A DNA stretch of 63,744 nucleotides, counting the filler, from Chrysochromulina tobinii (lineage: Eukaryota): NCBI GenBank assembly GCA_001275005.1. It is 7 parts of 7 records of this genome, joined end to end, with 100 filler letters (N's around TTAATTAATTAA, not from the genome) between each part and the next. Parts side by side here need not be neighbours in the genome. Positions count along the whole stretch, not along the records: positions 15,778 to 30,449 come from JWZX01000883.1; 6 more parts are not named here. One strand, 5' to 3'. Shown one piece after another: positions 15,678 through 60,296 of the stretch (within the stretch, counting starts at the first letter, position 1; each line of letters starts with the position of its first letter). The notes beneath the pieces are model-generated. The model did no database searches. It was not told the origin of the DNA and saw only the letters and a list, made by a program, of their open reading frames with translations. The position numbers and the translations under genes are program-made.

Positions 15678-15777
15678 NNNNNNNNNNNNNNNNNNNNNNN
15701 NNNNNNNNNNNNNNNNNNNNNTTAATTAATTAANNNNNNNNNNNNNNNNNNNNNNNNNNNNNNNNNNNNNNNNNNNN
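15678..15777. other. Artificial contig linker
   Basis: N44-TTAATTAATTAA-N44 six-frame stop linker. Confidence 0.99.
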
Positions 15778-17939
15778 GGCGGCGGCGGCGGCGGCGGCCT
15801 CGGCGGCGGCACGGGCATCGGCGGCGGGGCGCCAGTCGCATCGGTAGTATCGCGTTCACAAGCCGAGCGCCTCGCCAGCCCTGAGCGCCTTAATCTCGAT
15901 CGTCGAGGTCTCACTGCGTGCCCCTTACTGCAAGGCGAGGAGAGGCTTCGGCTGCTCAACTACCAGAACAACGCAATCGCCGAGATCAGCAACCTCCACA
16001 CGCTGCCGTACCTCATCTTCCTCGACCTGTGCGCACACGACTGCCTCCTTGACTGCCTCCTTGAGTGCCCTCTGAGTGCCCCTCTGAGCACCCTCTGAGC
16101 ACACACTGAGCACCCTCTTGAGTGCCTCTCTCATCAGGTACAACAACCGGATTTCGAGCATCTCGGGCCTCGAAGGAGTCCCCTCGCTCCGTGTGCTCAT
16201 GCTCGGCAAGAATGCCATCCGGGCCATCGAGCGCCTCGAGAAGCTGACGAAGCTCGACGTGCTCGACCTGCACTGCAACCAGGTAGGTGGATCGACCCAG
16301 ATTGCACCTGGAGAGCTCTTGATTGCCCTTGATGAAGTACGTGGATCGCCCCAGATTGCACGCTCTTGATTGCGCTTGATGAAGTACGTGGATCGCCCCA
16401 GATTGCACCTGGAGAGCTCTTGATTGCGCTTGATGAAGTACGTGGATCGCCCCTGATTGCGCCGCCTGGTTGCCCCTAAGCGCGCCTCGAGGCGTTGACG
16501 AAGCTCGGCATGCATTGCCATCAGATCGGAGCCATCGACGGCTTGTCGACCCTCTCCGAGCTGCGCGTGCTCAATCTCGCGGGCAACCAGGTGACGAATC
16601 TGATTGACCCCTGATGTGACGAATCTGATTATGGCCCCTGATGATGGCTCCCTCTCCGAGCTGCGCGTGCTCAATCTCGCGGGCAACCAGATCGCGCACC
16701 TCGAGGCGCGCCGGCTCGCCGGCCTCACCTCGCTGGCCGAGCTCAACTTGCGACGAAACTTGATCACGTCGGTGGCGGGAGTGGAGGCGCTGCCGGCGCT
16801 GCAACGCCTATTTCTCTCCTACAACGCCATCAACACGCTCGCGAGCGTCTCGTGCCTGCAAGTACGCTGATTGCGTCCTGATTGCGTCCTGAGTGCGTCC
16901 TGAGTGCGCACGGATTGCATCCTGAGTGCGTAGTGATTGAGTTCTGAGTGCGTTCTGAGTGCGTTCTGATTGCGTCATGATTAATCGCGAGCGTCCCGTG
17001 CGTGCAGGCCGCCGCAGGGTTGCATGAGCTCGCGCTCGACGGAAACCCGGTCGCGTCGGACGCGTCATACCGGCACGCAATCCTGTGCATCGGCCGTTCC
17101 CTTCGCCATCTCGACTTACGGCGCGTCTCCGAGGACGACCGACGGGCGGCACAGGCGCGCTGATGGCCTCTGATTGCGTCCTGATGACCGCCGATTGCGT
17201 CCTGATGGCCTCCAAAGACCACTGAGGACCGCTGATTGCGCCACAGGCCATGGCTCCGATTGCGTCTGATTGCGTCTGATTGCGTCCGATTGCGTCCGAT
17301 TGCGTCCGATTGCGTCCGATTGCGTCCGATTGCGTCTGATTGCGTCCGATTGCGCCACAGGCGTATGCTATGGCTCGCGAGGCCGAGAAGCCACCGGTGC
17401 CATCACCCACCCCCCGTGATCAGCAAGAGAGGACGGGCGACGCAATCAGAGGCGATCAGGATGCAATCAGAGGCCATCAAGAGAGGACGGGTGACGTGAC
17501 TGTTGGGCTCAGGCAGTCGTTGCACCACCCCGCGCCAGCCGCGTCGGCGCCCGCGACGGCGCTCGAAGCTGCCGGTGGCGCCCCGACGTCGTCGCGGGCG
17601 CCGCAGCCGCCGCAGCCACCCTCACGCCCGCTTGGCGCACCGTCAGCGGCTGATCAGTCAGCGGTAGCTCCGCACACCAGTGCCGCTGGCGGCATCGGCG
17701 CCGCCGCAGCCGGACGCGCCGCCGCCGCTGCCGCCCTTCGAGCTCGAGCGCTCGAGATCGGCCAGAGCAGCGCTGAAAGAGGTGGGGCGCCCACCACGGC
17801 GCCGGTCGCGGCACCAGCGCCGTCTCGAGCGCCTCTCTCGCAGGGCCGGTATGCTGGGTATGGCGGCGGCGCTGGTGGCGGCGCCTGTGGCGGCGGCGCT
17901 GGTGGCGACGGCGGCGGCGTTGGCGGTGGTGGCGGCGGT

Positions 17940-17980
<41 letters not shown>

Positions 17981-19206
17981 AGGTTCGCACACGGGTGCCC
18001 AGTACGGCGCCTTGCCACCGCCGGGCAGCAGCAGCAGCAGCGCCGCTCAGACCGTCGGCGAGGGTTCATCACGGGGTTCGTCACGGGAGGAGCGTGGCCA
18101 AATCGAGACGACCGAGATGGCGGGAGGTGCGTCACGGGGTTCGTCACGGGAGGAGCGTGGCCAAATCGAGATGACCGAGATGGCGGGAGGGGGCGTGTGG
18201 CTGCATGCATACGGCGAGGCCGCCGATGCGCTCGAGACGGCGCCGCGCTTCGCCGACGCTGTGGGGGTGAGCTTCTCTTTTCTTCCATTCGAGCGACTCG
18301 CGCGAACGGCCTTCCCCAAGCTCCGGTCGCTCCGGCGGTTACGCGAGCTGCATCTCGAGCACACAGAGCTCCACTCGCTTCATCAGCTCCACTCCTTTGC
18401 ATGCGTGCCTGGCGTCACCACGCTTCGCGTCTCCGTCGAGGGCAACCCCGTGGTGACGCATGCACACTTCCGATCCCTAATTGAGTCTGATTGCAACCCC
18501 GTGGTGACGCATGCACACTTCCTCTCCCTCTGCACCCCATCAGCCTAATTGAGTCTGATGGCATGCTGATGGCCTCCCTCATCAGGTGACGCATGCACAC
18601 TTCCGATCCCTCTGCACCGCAACTATGCCGCTCCTCCGCTCTCTCAACGGCGCCGAAATCACGCGAGATGAGCGCGAGGCCGCCGAGGGCGAGTGGCGCC
18701 GTCTCAAGCGCCTCTACTCGATGGCCCGCAACACATTGCATGCAAGGCATGCGCCGCTGCCGTTACTGCATGCAATGAGCATCTTCGACGGGCCGACCGA
18801 CACAGGCGCCGGCGCTCGAGACGGCGCTCGTGCCGGAGGAAGTGGTGCCTCCGTCACGAGCGCCGTCACGAGCGCCGCGCGCCATGCTGCTGGCGCGCCC
18901 GCGCACGCGCCCGCGTCCGCCGGCGCTCGTGACGGCGCTCTTTCCGGTACGTCCTCACGGGAGATCCAATCTCCGCCCGCGCAGCTCGCCGCCGCCTTCG
19001 TCGATCGCGTGCTCGAGCATGCCTTGGCCGTGGATGAGAAGATCTCGCAGCTGAATACGGCGTGGCCGCACATCGTGGCCACGTACCAGGCGCGCGTGCA
19101 CGCGGAGGTGGTCGACCGTTCCCTCTTCCTCCGCCGGTACCAAGCGGCGGCGAGCGGCAGTGATGAAGGTGCGACACTCGCGCTGCCCGAGATGCCCGCC
19201 GCCTAG
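15778..19206 (+). CDS. LRRC49: Leucine-rich repeat protein 49-like (tubulin polyglutamylase complex subunit), 5'-partial, multi-exon
   Basis: Spliced reading PERLNLDRRGLTACPLLQGEERLRLLNYQNN...LIFLDL|YNNRI...LRVLMLGKNAI...LDVLDLHCNQ|I...LRVLNLAGNQ|I...LQRLFLSYNAI...|ELALDGNPV...LRHLDLRRVSEDDRR follows LRRC49. Introns 16029-16137, 16283-16524, 16591-16690, 16862-17007, 17155-17360 (GC-AG) and 18453-18585; the middle part is uncertain. Confidence 0.85.
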
Positions 19207-19903
19207 GGACTTGAAGATCGTGCGGAGATGCCCACCGCCCTGATGCGTACAAGATAGTACACAGTATGCCTCTCCGATCACATGTGGTCGAGTCCTCTCC
19301 CGCGCGTGGCCTCACGGACCGCCCCGCTCGCGTTTTACTCGCGTTTTGGCCGCGACGTCTTCGTCCGTCCGAACTTCCGTCCACCCGTACTCACCGTTTG
19401 GGCACAGCGTTCTCGATATGACACCTGAGTCCCCCGCCCTGGTGGAGCCTTTCACGCGGCCACGCGGGCTCGCGCAGCGCGCCTCGATACACTACGATAC
19501 ACGATAGTCGATTGCAATTAATTGCAATACGATTCTAGTTTCTCAGCTAAGTTTCTACGATTCGGATTTCGGTGGGCACACACGTGCACGACGGCGGTCC
19601 ACTGGGATTACGGGGCTTACCACAGGACTCGAGCGTCGAGGACGGGCTCCGGTCGAGAACATGCGTTACTTTGCTGGCGGGAGGGGTGTGCGGGATGAAA
19701 ATCCCACGATGGTCGATGCTCTCTCTCTCACCATGCATCAGTTTTTGTGACCAAGGGGTAATCTCCCGGTGGAGCTCCGAGACCGCAAAGGCGCGAGGTT
19801 TCGCATCAAAAGGCTCGCTGCGACGCGAAGTCGAATCGCGCGATCGACGAGGCCGCCCCTCCGTGCACGACAAGCTTGAGGAAAGGCCGTCGGCGCTGTG
19901 ACC

Positions 19904-20656
19904 ATGGGTGGTGGCAACGCCCAGAAGTCGGCGATGGCGCGCGAGCGCAATGCGGCCAAGGCGGCCGCGGAAGGATCGGGCGGTGGTGGCGCTGCGGGCA
20001 TGAAGTCCCGCCAAGCGGATGCAAGTGTCCACGCCGCTGCTATGGCTGCGCGCGCGGAGAAGAATGATGCCCGCGCTGCGCGCGAAGCCGCGAAGAAGGC
20101 GGCGGAGGACGCGCTCAACGCGAAGTCTGCCAAGTTGGCGAAGGCGGCGGGCGACGCTGGAGCTGGCCTGCAAAGCGGCAGCGCTTCGAAGGATAAGAAG
20201 GCGGCGGCGGCAGCAGCGCTCGCAGCCCTCATGGCCCCGGCCCCGAAGAAGGAGAAGAAGAAGAAGGAGGAGAAGAAGCAGGGGGAGGAAGAGGAGGGCA
20301 AGGAGGACAAGGAGGAGGAGGAGGAGGAGGCTGGTGCGCAGAACGATGAGGGGGCGGAGGACGAGGCAGGCGACGAGGCTGAAGGTGATGATGCGGATGC
20401 GATGGACGAGGAAGCGTCGGTGGAGATCCCACAGCGCGTCTACACACCCGAGCAGCTCGCACAGAAGCAGGCGCAGAAGGCAAAGGCGGAGGTTGTGATG
20501 GCCGACCGCATCGCCAAGTCAGCGGCGAAGGCGGAGGCAGCGGACATCGCGGCCAAGACGGCTACAATCAAGGCGGCCCTCACCAAAGCCGGCAAGGCGG
20601 CGACGCTCAAAGAGGCCGAGCTCGACACGTTGCTTGCGGCGGCCGGCTTCGTGTGA
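19904..20656 (+). CDS. Protein with a 4F5/ZNF706-like N-terminus followed by an Ala/Lys/Glu-rich region
   Basis: Starts MGGGNAQKSAMARERN, the conserved N-terminus of the ZNF706/At2g23090-like family. No C2H2 finger visible. Confidence 0.7.
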   Translation: MGGGNAQKSAMARERNAAKAAAEGSGGGGAAGMKSRQADASVHAAAMAARAEKNDARAAREAAKKAAEDALNAKSAKLAKAAGDAGAGLQSGSASKDKKAAAAAALAALMAPAPKKEKKKKEEKKQGEEEEGKEDKEEEEEEAGAQNDEGAEDEAGDEAEGDDADAMDEEASVEIPQRVYTPEQLAQKQAQKAKAEVVMADRIAKSAAKAEAADIAAKTATIKAALTKAGKAATLKEAELDTLLAAAGFV

Positions 20657-21374
20657 GCGACCCTTCTGTTCGTTGCTCTCCACGATAGTTGCCCAGAGAG
20701 AGAAAGAGAGAGACGACAGAGCGCGCGCGGCGCAGCGAAAGTGCCGCTGTGTGGGGTGAATGGCCGCGCGGTGGCTAAGATACTGTCATGTTATCGCTGC
20801 GTGTACGCGACAGTGAGTCAAGACAGTGAGAGAGGCCACACGACACACAGTGAATTAGACGAATCATCGATGCCAGACGCGCGGACACCGATCATTTCAC
20901 ATCGCACCATTCTCAGGCTTTCCACAGACCACACACGGCGCCATAGCGCATAGAGGGTGCCAAGTCCGCGCTCCCGGCCGCGGCAGCCTCGGCCCTCGCC
21001 CATCACTTGTCGATTGAGCACGCCGCGTCGACGCGGGCCCCAGCCCCGCAGGCACCGGTGCGATGCACGAAACGGCGTGATCACGCGCGCGGCACACACA
21101 CGTATCTACCCGCGTCGAGTCACACACACAGCTATTTGCGGTTCAGAACCGCCGCTCGGTTGTGTGAGCTGGCAGTGACGCTGCCGTCCTACCTGCCGTC
21201 CCAACTCACGAACGTCGAGTCAGTCGCCCCCGCTAGCCCCGGATTTCCCCCCCACACCCCCCTCCCCTATCCCTCCCCTTTTCCCATCCCATCATAACCA
21301 CTGGCCGTAACTGCCACCTAACCGCCGCCCTTGAATCCGCCCCGTGCAAGGCCCCTCAGCGAGGCGTCTAGTGA

Positions 21375-21432
21375 CCATGTGAGGGGCCATGTGAGGGGCC
21401 ATGTGGGGGGCCATGTGAGTGGCCATGTGAGG
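21375..21432 (+). repeat. 12-bp tandem repeat (CCATGTGAGGGG) x about 5
   Basis: Seen directly, immediately downstream of the HECT stop codon. Confidence 0.85.
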
Positions 21433-21437
21433 AGTCC

Positions 21438-30449
<9,012 letters not shown>

Positions 30450-34729: not shown

Positions 34730-36641
34730 TCATTCGCTGTCCACGCAGCAGATGCCCAGGCCCAATTGTGACGTGCCTGGCGCCTCGCCGCTCCATGATG
34801 TGGACTGCGCGCCACCCGCGTCGGCCTCCTCCCTGGACCACGTGTGCGAGTTGGACGTGGCCCAGCCCATCTGGCGTGCGGCGGCGTACCCTCCCGAGTA
34901 CAGCTCCCGCAGGTTGCACAGATGGTAGCCGAGCCGGCACGAGCGGGCGGCCGCATCGAAATTGCACGCCATGCAACCCAGCTCAACGAACGCCGGCTCG
35001 ACCCCCCCGAGTGCACCTGGGATGAGGGAGGCCATCAGCATGCAATGAGGGAGGCCATCAGCATGCAATGAGGGAGGCCATCAGCATGCAATGAGGGAGG
35101 CAATCACAGCTCGACACCCCCGAGTGCACCTGCGGCGTCCGCCTGGATCTCGTCGTGACAGCATGCAATGAGGGAGGCAATCAGCATGCAATGAGGGAGG
35201 CAATCGCACCTGCGGCGTCCGCCTGGATCTCGTCGTGAGTGAGAGCGCGAGAGAAGAGCTTGAACTCGTCGATGAAGCCGTCCATACCGCCCTTGCGCCA
35301 CGGGTCGCCACCAAGGTACAGGTTGCCGGTGTTGTGGACAATGGTCCCCACCGTGGAGTTCTCCGCATCCAGGAGACCGTTGATGTACAATCGGAGAGAA
35401 TGGCCCTCCGCCACACACGCGAGGTGCGTCCAACGGCCGAGCGGCACAAAGGAATTGGACCACAGCCGCTCGCCGTCGGGCTGGTTCGCATCCGTCGTCG
35501 AGACGAAGAACTCAAGGCCGCGGGTCAATGGCTCGAGGAAGACGGTCGGCGTGCGGTCAGAGTCGCGCGCCCCCTTGTGCAAGACGGTGCGCCAGTCGCC
35601 GGTCGAGTCCTGGCGCAAGTAGAGCCACAAGGTGAGGCTGAACGTGTCCCGGGCCTCGGCCATCCGGGCGTGGTGCGCGATCTCTGAGTAGTCCTCGGCC
35701 CCAACATACCGCGCTGCGTGCCCCTTGCCGCCAATGCCAGGCCCAACGGCCGGTGGTTTCGTCGCGTGGTTGTGCATGCCGCTCGTATCGAGCGCGTGCG
35801 CGTCGTCAAAGGTGAAGTGCGCGATGATCCCGCGTGGCGCCGCGTCGGCGGCGAGCACTTTCTTGCCCCCCTCGACGCAGATGGGGCCCTGCGCCACAAG
35901 GTCGCAACGGCCACCGCTTGCCGCCGCAGCTTCCTTCCCTGCGTCCACCGCCTCCGTCAGCCTCGCCATCTTCTCTTCCTTCGAGCCCGTCTTGCTGAGG
36001 CCGCGCGCGCTGAGCGCATCGTCCAGCTTGCTCAGCGTGCAGCTGAAGCCCGGGATCGCGTCCGTCATCCGATCGCAGTGCCGCTGGAAGGTGTACAGCC
36101 GGCCGATCAGGTCGCGCTGCGATCCGGCCGATGTGAGCATACGCTCCGCTGTGGCCTGCTGCAGATCCTCGAGCGCGAGGCTTGCGGCGAGCGGGCGCTG
36201 CGGGTTGATGATGTAGCACTCGCGCTCGATACGTGCCTCAAGCTTGTCCACGAGCTCGGCCAGCGGCTCCGATGCCGAGAAGACCTCCCCCTTTTGCTCG
36301 AGCACAGTGTGCAGCGCGGTGGCGTTGTCGAGGCGCGATCGTGGTGGAAGCGAGGCCTGGGCCCGCAGCGCCGCAGCGAGGTCGCGCCGGAGCTCGTCGG
36401 CGCGCGCGCTCAGCGAAGGCGTCGAACCCAGCTTCTTGAGCTGATGCCGCATGAGGTGTGCCGTCGCATTTGGCCCGAGATGTGCTTCGATGAGCTCTTC
36501 ATCCGGGGAGCAAAGCGGCACGAGCTTATGCGGCGCCGAAGTCGTCAGCTCGTCAGCCGCCGGCTCGAGTGCCAGCGACGCCGACAATGACGCCGCCGAC
36601 ACGGCCTGGATGACGAACCAAAATAGGTGTGTCACCACCAT
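34730..36641 (-). CDS. Secreted LamG/concanavalin A-like domain protein with a SAP-like motif and a Cys-rich C-terminus (intron 35017-35209)
   Basis: Signal peptide MVVTHLFWFVIQAVSA; SAP-like LSARGLSKTGSKEEKMARL; LamG IIAHFTFDD..DTSG, FSLTLW, WTHLA, LYING, GFIDEFKLFSRAL; spliced C-terminus GC..C...C...YHLC..EL..GY..AR.MGW. Confidence 0.8.
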
Positions 36642-38567: not shown

Positions 38568-39196
38568 TGATGACCACTGATGACCACCGATGGCCACTGA
38601 TAATCACTGATGACCACCGATGACCTCCGATGACCACCGATGACATCGGACGACCTCGGATGACCTCCGATGACTTCCGATGACCACCGATGACTTCCGA
38701 TGACCACCGATGACTTCCGATGACCTGTGATGGCCACTGATGGCCACTGATGACCACCGATGACCTCCGATGACTTCCGATGACCTCTGATGACTTCCGA
38801 TGACCTCCGATGACTTCTGATGACCTCCGATGACTTCCGATGACCTGTGATGACCTCCGATGACTTCCGATGACCTGTGATGACCTCTGATGACCTCTGA
38901 TGACCACCGATGACCTCCAATGACCTCCGATGACCTCTGATGGCCACTGATGACCTCCGATGACCACCGATGACATCGGACGACCTCGGATGACCTCCGA
39001 TGACTTCCGATGACCTCTGATGACCTCTGATGACCTCCGATGACCTCGGACGACCTCGATGACCTCCGATGATCTCTGATGATCTCTGATGACTTCTGAT
39101 GACCTCCGATGACTTCCAATGACCTCTGATGACCTCTGATGACCTCTGATGACCTCTGATGACCTCTGATGACCTCCGATGACCTCTGATGACCTC
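38568..39196 (+). repeat. 10-bp satellite (TGATGACCTC/CGATGACTTC variants), about 60 units
   Basis: Strict 10-nt periodicity seen directly; same unit family as the intronic repeats of contigs 2-3. Confidence 0.95.
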
Positions 39197-39291: not shown

Positions 39292-40714
39292 GCGTTTTGA
39301 GCAATTGCGTATTGAGGCAGCCTTTTGCGTATTACGCAATACAGTTTGACAGGGTTTGCGTATTGCGTATTGCGTATTGCGTATTGCGTACCCGCTTTGA
39401 GCAGCATTGCGTATTGCGTATTGCGTATTGCGTTTGGGCGTACCCACTGGGAACCACCTACACGCGTATTGCGTATTGCGTATTGCGTATTGGGGCGAAG
39501 ACCCTTATTGCGTATTGCGTATTGCGTATTGCGTATTGCGTATTGCGTGTTGCGTGTTGCGTGTTGCGTTTCGCGTTTTGCGCTTTGCGTTTTGCGTTTT
39601 GGGGCTTTTGACCCGCATTGCGAATTGCGTATTGCGTATGCGATTGCGTATTGGGGCTTTGACCCGCATTGCGAATTGCGTATTGCGTTTGCGTATTGCG
39701 TATTGGGGCTTTGACCCGCATTGCGTATTGCGTATTGCGTTTGCGTATTGCGTATTGGGGCTTTGACCCGCATTGCGTTTTGCGTTTTGCGTTTGCGTTT
39801 TGCGTTTTGCGTTTTGCGTTTTGCGTTTTGCGTTTTGCGTTTTGCGTTTTGCGTTTTGCATGCGTTTTGCGTTTTGCGTTTTGCGTTCTGCGTTCTGCGT
39901 TTTGCGTTTTGCGTAATGCGTTTTGCGTATTGCGTATTGCGTATTGCGTTTTACCTCGTATTGCGTATTGCGTATTACCTCGTAATGCTGGGCCAGTAAA
40001 GCGTACGTTTTCCTAACACATAAAACTCATGCTTAGCCAGTAAGGCGTAGCCGTAAGAGTAACCGTCATACCGCTCCACCTGTAAGGCGTCGTTATGCTG
40101 GGCCAGTAAAGCGTACGTTTTCCTAACACATACCCAAACTCATGCTTAGCCAGTAAGGCGTAGCCGTAAGAGTAACCGACATACCGCTCCACCTGTAAGG
40201 CGTCGTTATGCTGGGCCTGTAAAGCGTACGTTTAATAGCTCGTGGTTAGTCATACCGCTCCACCTGTACGGCGTCGTTATGCTGGGCCAGTAAAGCGTAC
40301 GTTTTCCTAACACATACCCAAACTCATGCTGGGCCTGTGCAAGTGCTTCCTAATCTTCTCGTGGTTAGTCATACCGCTCCACCTGTGGTTCATCCTGGTG
40401 TCGCAAAACGCAAAACGCAATACGCAATACGCAATACGCAATACGCAATACGCAATACGCAATACGCAATACGCAATACGCAAAACGCTATACGCAAAAC
40501 GCAAAACGCAAAACGTAAAAAACGCATGCAATACATGTACGCAAAACGCAAAACGCAAAACGGGTCAAAGTGGGCTGGCCCGTACGCAATACGCAATACG
40601 CAATACGCAATGCGGGTCAAAGTGGGTTGATAAATACGCAATACGCAATACGCAATGCAGGCCAAAGTGGGCTGGCCAGTACGCAATACGCAACACGCAA
40701 TACGCAATACGCAA
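39292..40714. mobile_element. Foldback-like element: inverted arms of TATTGCG/TTTTGCG heptamers around a ~110-bp tandem repeat
   Basis: Left arm (TATTGCG)n/(TTTTGCG)n at 39292-39975 and right arm (CGCAATA)n/(CGCAAAA)n at 40402-40714. The module CTTTGACCCGCATTGCG is shared in inverted orientation. Central ATGCTGGGCC.GT repeats at 39985, 40095, 40208, 40279 and 40326. Confidence 0.55.
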
Positions 40715-58433: not shown

Positions 58434-58910
58434 GGTGAACGCCACAGTGGGGTTGTGGGCGATGGAGGGAGGTGGTGCGAGCGGATCAGGCTTGACAGAG
58501 GATGTGGCGGGAACTGCCGTTGGGGTGGGGGCGGCAGGCGGACTACTGCTTCACGGTCGACGGTCGTCGCATGCTGTATGACGTAAAACGGATCTCCTTC
58601 TGTCCGAGTCGCTACTGGCCTACGGTCGCGGTGGCCTCTAGCCGTGGAGGGCCGCTTGAGTACAGGGCATCTTCCGTTCGTGCGGAGTATGAGGCAGCGG
58701 CTGCCGCACTCGACGCGTCGTCGACGCGACGGCACGCTCGCCGCCCTATGGGCCGCCCACGTCCACGGCCTCGCCGACCTCCCCGGCACCGTCCTCGACG
58801 ACGACGTGGACGAAGACACCGTCGACTATGACGGCGTCCAACCCGCCGGTCCGCCGACCATGCCCGACCTCCAAACCGTCGCCCGCAAATCCGCCTTTCT
58901 CGCCCACCAA
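58434..58910 (+). pseudogene. Degenerate restriction-like endonuclease (RLE) region of a non-LTR retrotransposon
   Basis: RQADYCFTVDGRRMLYDVKRI resembles the R-x-PD...D-x-K motif, followed by E.RA..V..EY...A..LD. Frameshifts on both sides. Confidence 0.5.
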
Positions 58911-60296
58911 GCCGAGGCGCTCGGAAGGGTGCGAAGCAAGCCAACGGCCTGCGATCTGGGCGGCGTCCCCAGCCTCCAGCCACGCGTGTCTCCGAGGGTC
59001 CGTCCTGGGAAGAGCGAGCATGAGGACATCGAGGCGCCGAGCCGCTGCTGCCTCCCGCTGGGCCGTGATGGCGTGCTGCATCCGGTGCTGCGCGGGCACC
59101 GTCTCGGCCGGGTGGCTGAGCAAGCCAGGCGACTGTGTGACATCCACCACGCCATCGACCTCCTCCCTAAGAAGAGCCCATGCATCCGAAAAGGCGTGGC
59201 CCAAGTCCGAGTCTGAGGCGAGGAGAGTCGACATGCGCAAGTCGGGCGTGTCGAAGTCGAAGGACCGGGCGCCGAGGCGGTGCGCGAGCTGAGGGAAGAA
59301 GCCTGGCCGTGTGACGCCATCCGCCATCCGGGTGTCGAGGAGCCGCTCGCACGCAGTACGGAAGGAGGAGCAGAAGGCGGCGGGGGCAAGCGACAAGCGA
59401 GAGCGGATCCCACAGCCTCGGCGCCAGATCGGCAGACGGACGCGCAAACGGAGCTCCTCTGAAGCCGTGGCACCGTGGTAGGTGAGTGCCTCAACGGCAT
59501 CGCGTAGCTCGGCGTCCACAGAGTGGCATGTGGCCTCCGTCTCCTCCGGTGTGAGGTGCTGCAACCAGAAATCCAACCGGGTCTGGATGGCGCTGTACAA
59601 GCAGGACCACATCGCGAACGACGAGGCAGGCTGGAGCTGATGGATCGTAGATCGAATGTAGCTCACAAAGCCCGCCGTCAGCGTGGACATGTACTGCCTG
59701 ATGAACGCCTCATGACCCAACGGCACACCGCCGACGGTGATGCCTGGAAGGAAAGGCTCAATGATGCAGATCTCTCTCTCTCGGTCGATTCGGCTGCTGC
59801 CCATAATGCCACCTCGCGAGATGCCGAGCGCGTCGAGGTCGCGTAGTACAGCTCCCTGAAGAGTGCGGGGCGAGTAGTAGGAACACTTGCGAAACTGCAA
59901 GTGTAGCCCGAGATCGGTGAGACGGTCGGCGAAACGACGGATGGCGGGGAGAACCTCCTCTGGTCGGCCATAGCAGTAGCCATCGTCCATGATGAAGGTG
60001 GCGCCGCCGCCGCCGCCAGCAAGCGCCTCGTGGAGCTCCTGCACGGCCTCCTGGATGAGGACGCAGAAGGCCAACGAAGACTCAGGAGAGCCCTGGGGCA
60101 AGCCCTCCTCAAAGTCGCCACGGTCTGAGCCCGCGAAGAGGCGCGAGCCATCCGGAAGGACGATGATGCCCGCCGGTCCGTACATGGCGTGCATGAGCGG
60201 GACGAGAGAGGCGACCCCTGGCACCGCTGCCATGCGCTGCAGGACCTGCGCTCGCCTCGACTCGTTGTACGCATTGCGGAGATCCGTACCGGTAAT
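58911..60296 (-). mobile_element. 5'-truncated non-LTR retrotransposon reverse transcriptase (CRE/R2-like RLE group)
   Basis: DLRNAYNE (motif A), EGLPQGSPESSLAFC (motif B), FIMDDGY (motif C), GVPLG and RLPIWRRGCGIR (thumb). In-frame stop at 60297-60299 just upstream of motif A. Confidence 0.85.

Follow-up and report, generated by a model that had tools for sequence, protein, structure and literature searches.

The window (the whole stretch of DNA analysed, 63,744 nucleotides from the Chrysochromulina tobinii assembly GCA_001275005.1) consists of several contigs joined by N-linkers. The N runs around TTAATTAATTAA at 15678-15777 and at five other gaps are such linkers, so that adjoining pieces are not necessarily neighbours in the genome. 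On the piece 15778-30449 lies a leucine-rich-repeat (LRR) gene with Pfam LRR_8 and LRR_4 domains, the LRRC49 name of which comes from the source annotation of one relative (P0008). When exons 15781-16028, 16138-16282, 16525-16590, 16691-16861 and 17008-17157 are joined, they give 260 stop-free codons, and the intron with which this work is concerned, I3 (table 1), falls in phase 0 directly after the residues NLAGNQ. For a pyruvate kinase encoded on another piece of the window, the closest named relatives include Haptolina, Isochrysis and Tisochrysis (71-76%), which indicates a haptophyte provided that the pieces come from one genome.

Further downstream in the gene, a GC-AG intron, I5, is predicted at 17155-17360 (+), being required to carry the LRRC49-like frame onward, and its retention would lead to a stop at 17161-17163. 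In this region a contig of RNA run X12 is unspliced across 17008-17284 and those of runs X14 and X15 reach beyond 17150, possibly reflecting poor splicing at the GC donor. An in-frame 63-nt tandem duplication within an exon (18063-18188, +) is common to the window and to L009, one of the alleles described below. Elsewhere in the window, the intervals 38568-39192 (+), 39394-39809 and 40538-40708 of one short contig contain a long array of TGATGACCTC-type units and TTGCGTA/TACGCAA satellites, the latter in opposite orientations.

Table 1. Features at and around the intron site and at the other sites discussed, with positions along the window.
Feature	Position	Strand	Remarks
LRRC49-like leucine-rich-repeat gene	15781..19207	+	5′ end cut by the contig gap 15678-15777; 3′ end approximate
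Intron I1	16029..16137	+	RNA joint; no exon copy detectable
Intron I2	16283..16524	+	Common to three alleles; splice deduced from the X14 contig
Exonic 41-nt copy	16550..16590	+	Closes exon 16525-16590 (66 nt), which encodes a single LRR unit
Intron I3, phase-0 GT-AG, 100 nt	16591..16690	+	Missing in L008 and L009; RNA joint in X14 and X15
59-nt filler	16591..16649	+	GT donor; branch-point-like CTGAT motifs
Intronic 41-nt copy	16650..16690	+	CAG acceptor at 16688-16690
Intron I4	16862..17007	+	Common to three alleles; RNA joint in three of three RNA runs
Repeat-filler-repeat inside an exon, antisense	17424..17496	-	19-nt repeat; CTGATTG-type filler
Predicted intron I6	18453..18585	+	No RNA joint seen
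Intron of neighbouring gene	21885..22071	-	RNA-confirmed; mid-intron 45-nt copy of the upstream exon end
Predicted intron	35017..35209	-	50-nt spliced-junction copy (29 + 21 nt) between two fillers

The duplication in DNA and the splice in RNA

I3 had been described in a first-pass annotation, made from the sequence alone, as a 100-nt intron ending in an exact copy of the last 41 nt of the upstream exon, the two copies being set apart by a 59-nt spacer that starts with GTGACG and carries CTGAT repeats. This description holds: the 41-mer is exact at both places, with no third occurrence on either strand of the whole window and a chance expectation for such a pair of about 6e-15, and the spacer has the start and the CTGAT motifs described. 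The spacer, or filler, is itself an imperfect internal tandem repeat with units of 25 and 27 nt. Owing to the duplication, the last branch-like motif of I3 lies 50 nt from the acceptor, against 16-19 nt in 7 of 16 introns. A GAG at 16658-16660, about 20 nt past that motif, is a possible alternative in-frame acceptor, the use of which would add 10 codons; the RNA contigs use the CAG only. Retention of I3 would bring a stop at intron codon 8.

Seventeen sequencing runs, six of them RNA, contain at least half of the stretch's words. In contigs of the DNA run X2, which may derive from the same material as the window assembly and is then not independent of it, 16424-16579 is found at depth 99, the 41 nt of 16550-16590 at 244.5, 16561-16679 at 124 and 16661-17150 at 123, so that both copies and the spacer are present in short-read contigs. 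These values fit a two-copy repeat around a full-depth spacer, although depth by itself is no copy number.

In the narrower comparison of three RNA runs (X12, X14 and X15), made on contigs, which give no splicing efficiency, X14 and X15 join 16549 to 16650, skipping 100 nt and leaving 16554-16641 uncovered; a GT..AG intron results solely when the cut is shifted by +41. On its shorter side the joint has 47 letters in X14; in X15 it has 28, which is below the 31-letter bar. Run X12 contains unspliced 16561-16690 and unspliced intron 1 too, and therefore includes precursor RNA or DNA. By its GT...AG ends and its removal from RNA in two of the three runs, I3 is a spliceosomal (U2-type) intron. The GT donor lies in the filler and the CAG acceptor in the duplicated segment, and after splicing the RNA equals the intronless allele, as expected from the earlier proposal that the duplicated CAG serves as acceptor and that splicing restores the gene.

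Alleles, relatives and the direction of change

A metagenome scan covering 28 of 64 parts gave at least 15 related loci, and further alleles probably exist beyond those found. Two of them, L008 and L009, come from different assemblies, are about 98% identical to the window in exons and lack exactly the filler and one copy (100 nt), thus providing the intronless allele that the first-pass annotation had in mind. Both have I1, I2, I4 and the predicted I5 in common with the window, and L009 also has I6. Private differences number 10, 5 and 6 for the window, L008 and L009, respectively, over 947 exon columns, and 14, 7 and 26 over 596 intron columns.

The loss of a repeat together with its spacer looks like the collapse of a repeat, and the comparison is based on contigs, so that an assembly artefact has to be considered, the window being falsely duplicated here or the repeat collapsed in L008 and L009. 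This we regard as extremely improbable: in X2 the spacer is present and the repeat reaches double the depth of its flanks, and the unspliced form occurs in X12; the 63-nt tandem at 18063-18188 and the I6 repeats remain uncollapsed in L009; and L008 and L009, although assembled separately, have in common differences that mark the allele, 28 nt downstream and 67 nt upstream of the site.

Among the loci of the scan, of which four stop short of the site, none of the 11 that span it has an intron at the I3 codon; in L005 the nearest intron lies 7 codons downstream. In a 15-row tree, built without the near-identical L008 and L009 and without fragmented loci, the window groups with P0001/2/10, P0005/20 and P0003/16 (98/97). 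The proteins of eight of nine relatives are gapless over all four intron positions, and the ninth begins inside the region and is gapless onward. An in-frame insertion elsewhere in P0003 and P0016 resembles a read-through intron, from which these two are probably genomic in origin; the remaining aligned proteins may be transcript-derived.

No root can be placed among the three alleles (window, L008 and L009), and a direct repeat is prone to the exact deletion of one unit. I3 might accordingly be an old intron precisely lost in L008 and L009, its 3′ end having been replaced with the 41-nt copy by conversion with exon DNA or cDNA. Perfect identity is no proof of youth in this respect, since a copy dating back to the allele split would have about one chance in four of showing no change (~0.25, a hand estimate from the allele differences). 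Against such a history, which we consider very unlikely, speak the nine more distant spanning loci, none with an intron at the codon (including L005, with its nearest intron downstream), and the continuous reading frames of the relatives nearest in the tree. The inference of a very recent event from zero divergence is thus supported as to recency, with a caveat as to its ground: taken alone, the perfect 41-nt identity is weak evidence of youth, and recency rests on the presence/absence polymorphism. A recent gain is recognized by a site that is empty both in alleles of the same species and in outgroups, and this is what L008 and L009, 11 of 11 loci, the tree and the gapless proteins together present; in the simplest reading, this polymorphic intron was most likely gained recently in the window's lineage.

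Exon copies and fillers in other introns

Beyond what the first-pass annotation records, the introns on both sides of I3 also end in copies of their upstream exon ends. The final 43 nt of I2 reproduce a 52-nt exon end in decayed form, with one 9-nt gap and 7 mismatches, and the intron now ends in CATCAG, as do 8 of the 16 introns examined; in I4 the last 23 nt match the exon end at 20 positions, the exon now ending in CAA and the copy in CAG. Copy identity over three consecutive introns is thus 41/41 in I3, 20/23 in I4 and 36 matches over 52 columns in I2, so that the I4 and I2 copies are older, decayed scars forming with I3 an age series within one gene, which suggests that introns are made in this way recurrently.

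When each intron was aligned to its own spliced junction and an exon copy was counted at a score of at least 17, five of 10 RNA-bounded introns (eight with direct joints, two with indirect ones) carried a copy, as did four of six predicted introns, a biased sample chosen by eye and partly for the repeats. The background of 272 non-cognate pairs has a mean of 7.5 and a 99th percentile of 11.6; its single outlier (35) corresponds, by its length, to the I2 downstream flank, which holds 35 nt of the 41-mer. A predicted intron of the upstream gene in L008 (849-983, +), the ends of which share about 18 nt across AG|GT in a short duplication of the proto-splice type, does not score above background in the junction alignment.

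Across sites the copies measure about 17-54 nt, and their position varies. They lie at the 3′ end in I2, I3 and I4; in I6 the start of the downstream exon is copied at the 5′ end, and the intron also contains a 47-nt spliced-junction copy. In the intron at 35017-35209 an internal CAG|GT could divide the whole into two abutting introns (recursive splicing). In four longer introns (21885-22071, 25746-25998, 28894-29048 and 23215-23612) the copy stands beside a donor in the interior of the intron. That of 28894-29048 is simply exon end and intron start repeated in tandem, so that not every copy marks the birth of an intron, and all four may have arisen by ordinary tandem duplication across a donor that was already present. 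The intron at 23215-23612 (-) opens with about five 46-nt tandem units, each made of the intron start, an acceptor-like CATCAG and the last bases of the upstream exon. Finally, the antisense repeat-filler-repeat at 17424-17496 is translated in frame as QERTGD-AIRGDQDAIRGH-QERTGD; the insert measures 54 nt in the window against 33 nt in L008 and L009, and the difference, a 21-nt shorter filler, keeps the frame in both states.

The I3 filler uses the CTGAT/TGATTG vocabulary of the other introns, and its best match elsewhere in the 63.7-kb window and in the at least 15 related loci is 13 nt exact. Exact filler patterns and the common intron-end motif had no match in viral and prokaryote genome contigs, where the alga is not expected, so that this result is no evidence. 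The filler's internal repeat units have diverged and the 41-mer copies have not; from this comparison the filler likely existed before the insertion. An X2 contig carries the sequence that starts at 16589 next to another left flank, and X2 depth is 374 over 16598-16641, three times the 124 of the spacer, so that related sequence exists elsewhere; the loose end at 16589 suits a donor intron and a mobile family equally. Before CCCTC the filler ends in ...GATGGCT, near the ...GATGGCCTCCCTC of I6 and of the intron at 35017. At 10 filler-to-copy junctions, the start of the copy continues the motifs of other introns over 25 nt in total against 10.7 +/- 3.3 expected (P ~0.0003), in a test of post hoc design with three hand-placed starts and three of the 10 junctions at 0. 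For I3 alone, strict microhomology is 2 nt, a value reached by 29% of background positions.

Possible routes to a new intron

Taken together, these observations point to the creation of I3 by one recent insertion during DNA repair or replication, through template switching, a reading to which we give a probability of roughly 0.55. Synthesis would finish copying the exon end (...CAG) and jump to a CTGAT-rich intron sequence elsewhere, most of which would be copied beginning at its donor; the strand would then re-anneal 41 nt upstream of its point of departure and copy the exon end again. With a donor intron and microhomology, the template would be an ordinary intron with a 3′ part running into ...CCCTCATCAG. 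The same mutation seems to be frequent in this genome and to occur in either orientation; selection would retain those events that splice without a trace, land within an intron or preserve the frame, and the intronic copy would decay after its birth, as in I4 and I2. The antisense in-frame case at 17424-17496 points to an event at the level of DNA, blind to the strand of the gene, and the spread of copy lengths (about 17-54 nt) is unlike a fixed transposase cut.

The published systems of intron gain, each compared here through the accessible part of its source, share several of these traits. The introner of Chrysochromulina sp., with a 4-bp duplication (Gozashti et al. 2022; bioRxiv 10.1101/2022.06.06.494994), likewise has a haptophyte host and an insert that brings its own 5′ site and recruits the 3′ one from the duplication, leaves the mRNA unchanged and has no terminal inverted repeats (at I3, none at the filler ends among the 25 longest inverted pairs listed). 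I3 might thus belong to a mobile introner family, the filler of which carries the 5′ splice site and obtains the 3′ site from a long, variable duplication made by its own integration enzyme. Besides this geometry, the second X2 contig, with the filler start next to another flank, and the very high summed depth of intron-end motifs in DNA speak for such a family. We nevertheless hold it to be unlikely: the fillers of different window sites show no end-to-end resemblance (best match 13 nt) and no near-identical family is seen in the window; the spacer forms one unbroken contig at single-copy depth, no near-identical copy being evident; and the duplications published for introners, in the available parts of the reports, are fixed at 3-8 nt, and that of Chrysochromulina sp. 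is 4 bp, against 41 nt here. The short fixed duplication being absent from I3, the intron is not filed as an introner. In the accessible supplement of PMC9860276, two cultured Chrysochromulina assemblies are among the genomes screened and absent from the introner table. The introner-like elements of Symbiodinium and Polarella glacialis (Roy et al., bioRxiv 10.1101/2020.10.14.339549) are similar in drawing splice sites from the duplication and in occurring in either orientation; they differ in belonging to DNA-transposon families with many similar copies and with duplications of a fixed 3-8 nt.

Target-primed reverse transcription typically leaves duplications of variable length, and 5′ truncation of the insert is expected of it. 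A reverse transcriptase could have copied intron RNA or pre-mRNA at a staggered nick, the junction copies being cDNA patches, and the variable duplication length, the two predicted introns with contiguous spliced-junction copies and a weak RVT_1 match at 58749-60296 (-) (E 2e-5, below the Pfam cut-off) lend this some plausibility. However, the filler retains the intron 5′ end and is without the 3′ end, the opposite of the truncation expected; it starts at the GT donor and has no poly(A), so that neither a kept 3′ end nor a tail is found; and junction copies are also expected from the duplication of a site that was then intronless. We therefore judge an RNA template to be distinctly improbable. 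The open frame at 58749-60296 is possibly a retroelement fragment.

Closer to template switching are the neointrons of Daphnia pulex, attributed to staggered double-strand-break repair, for which 33 repeats of 4-12 bp are reported (Li et al. 2014, PMC4202315). With them I3 shares presence/absence within a species, the exon-end direct repeat at the far intron end and internal repeats, and it differs in its 41-nt repeat and in a filler built of the genome's own intron motifs; the sequence signature of intron gain by double-strand-break repair is present, with a repeat exceeding the Daphnia range. In tandem duplication of an AGGT proto-splice site, an exon is duplicated and one copy becomes the intron (Yenerall and Zhou 2012, PMC3443670; Lehmann et al. 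2010, PMC2891723). I3 similarly shows an exon segment doubled, one copy intronic and the coding sequence unchanged, but plain duplication of CAG|AT, the state of the empty site, yields no donor, which is supplied by a 59-nt foreign filler, so that this route is ruled out. Because I2 and I3 occupy the same place in adjacent repeats, an LRR exon might have been duplicated whole, introns included; this is also discarded, since the filler is unlike I2 and the alleles differ by the filler and one copy alone. As to replitrons (PMC10288648), candidates for variable duplications according to the accessible text, nothing links them to the I3 site. Alternative end joining yields templated insertions and partial tandem duplications (PMC7407515; Hanscom and McVey), that is, a duplication and a templated filler with short microhomologies as seen here, and is described in the available part of that source as a general origin of insertions, not as making spliced introns. 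A study of mite introns (bioRxiv 10.1101/051292) found no such signature in the mite genome. For haptophytes, no account of new introns with long duplications of exon ends emerged from the literature, of which our coverage is partial, so that one may have been published before.

Footprint searches target 3-8 bp repeats near the junctions (PMC9169325, accessible part), and searches for short repeats or for end-to-end intron similarity could miss long duplications with locus-specific fillers. The origin of spliceosomal introns remains under debate, chiefly because its traces are lost with time. In the present case a spliced intron, exact empty-site alleles, an intact 41-nt scar and two older, decayed scars occur in one gene, so that the steps may be read directly, and the public DNA and RNA runs and the wild alleles make a genome-wide count feasible now. 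More tentatively, and on balance with some doubt, template switching might extend to a self-feeding, transposon-free process still segregating in the wild, in which CTGAT-repeat introns template new ones and account for a large share of introns. If so, each event would leave a long, variable exon duplication supplying the missing splice site, and every new intron would be a template for the next: introns would breed introns at the level of DNA.
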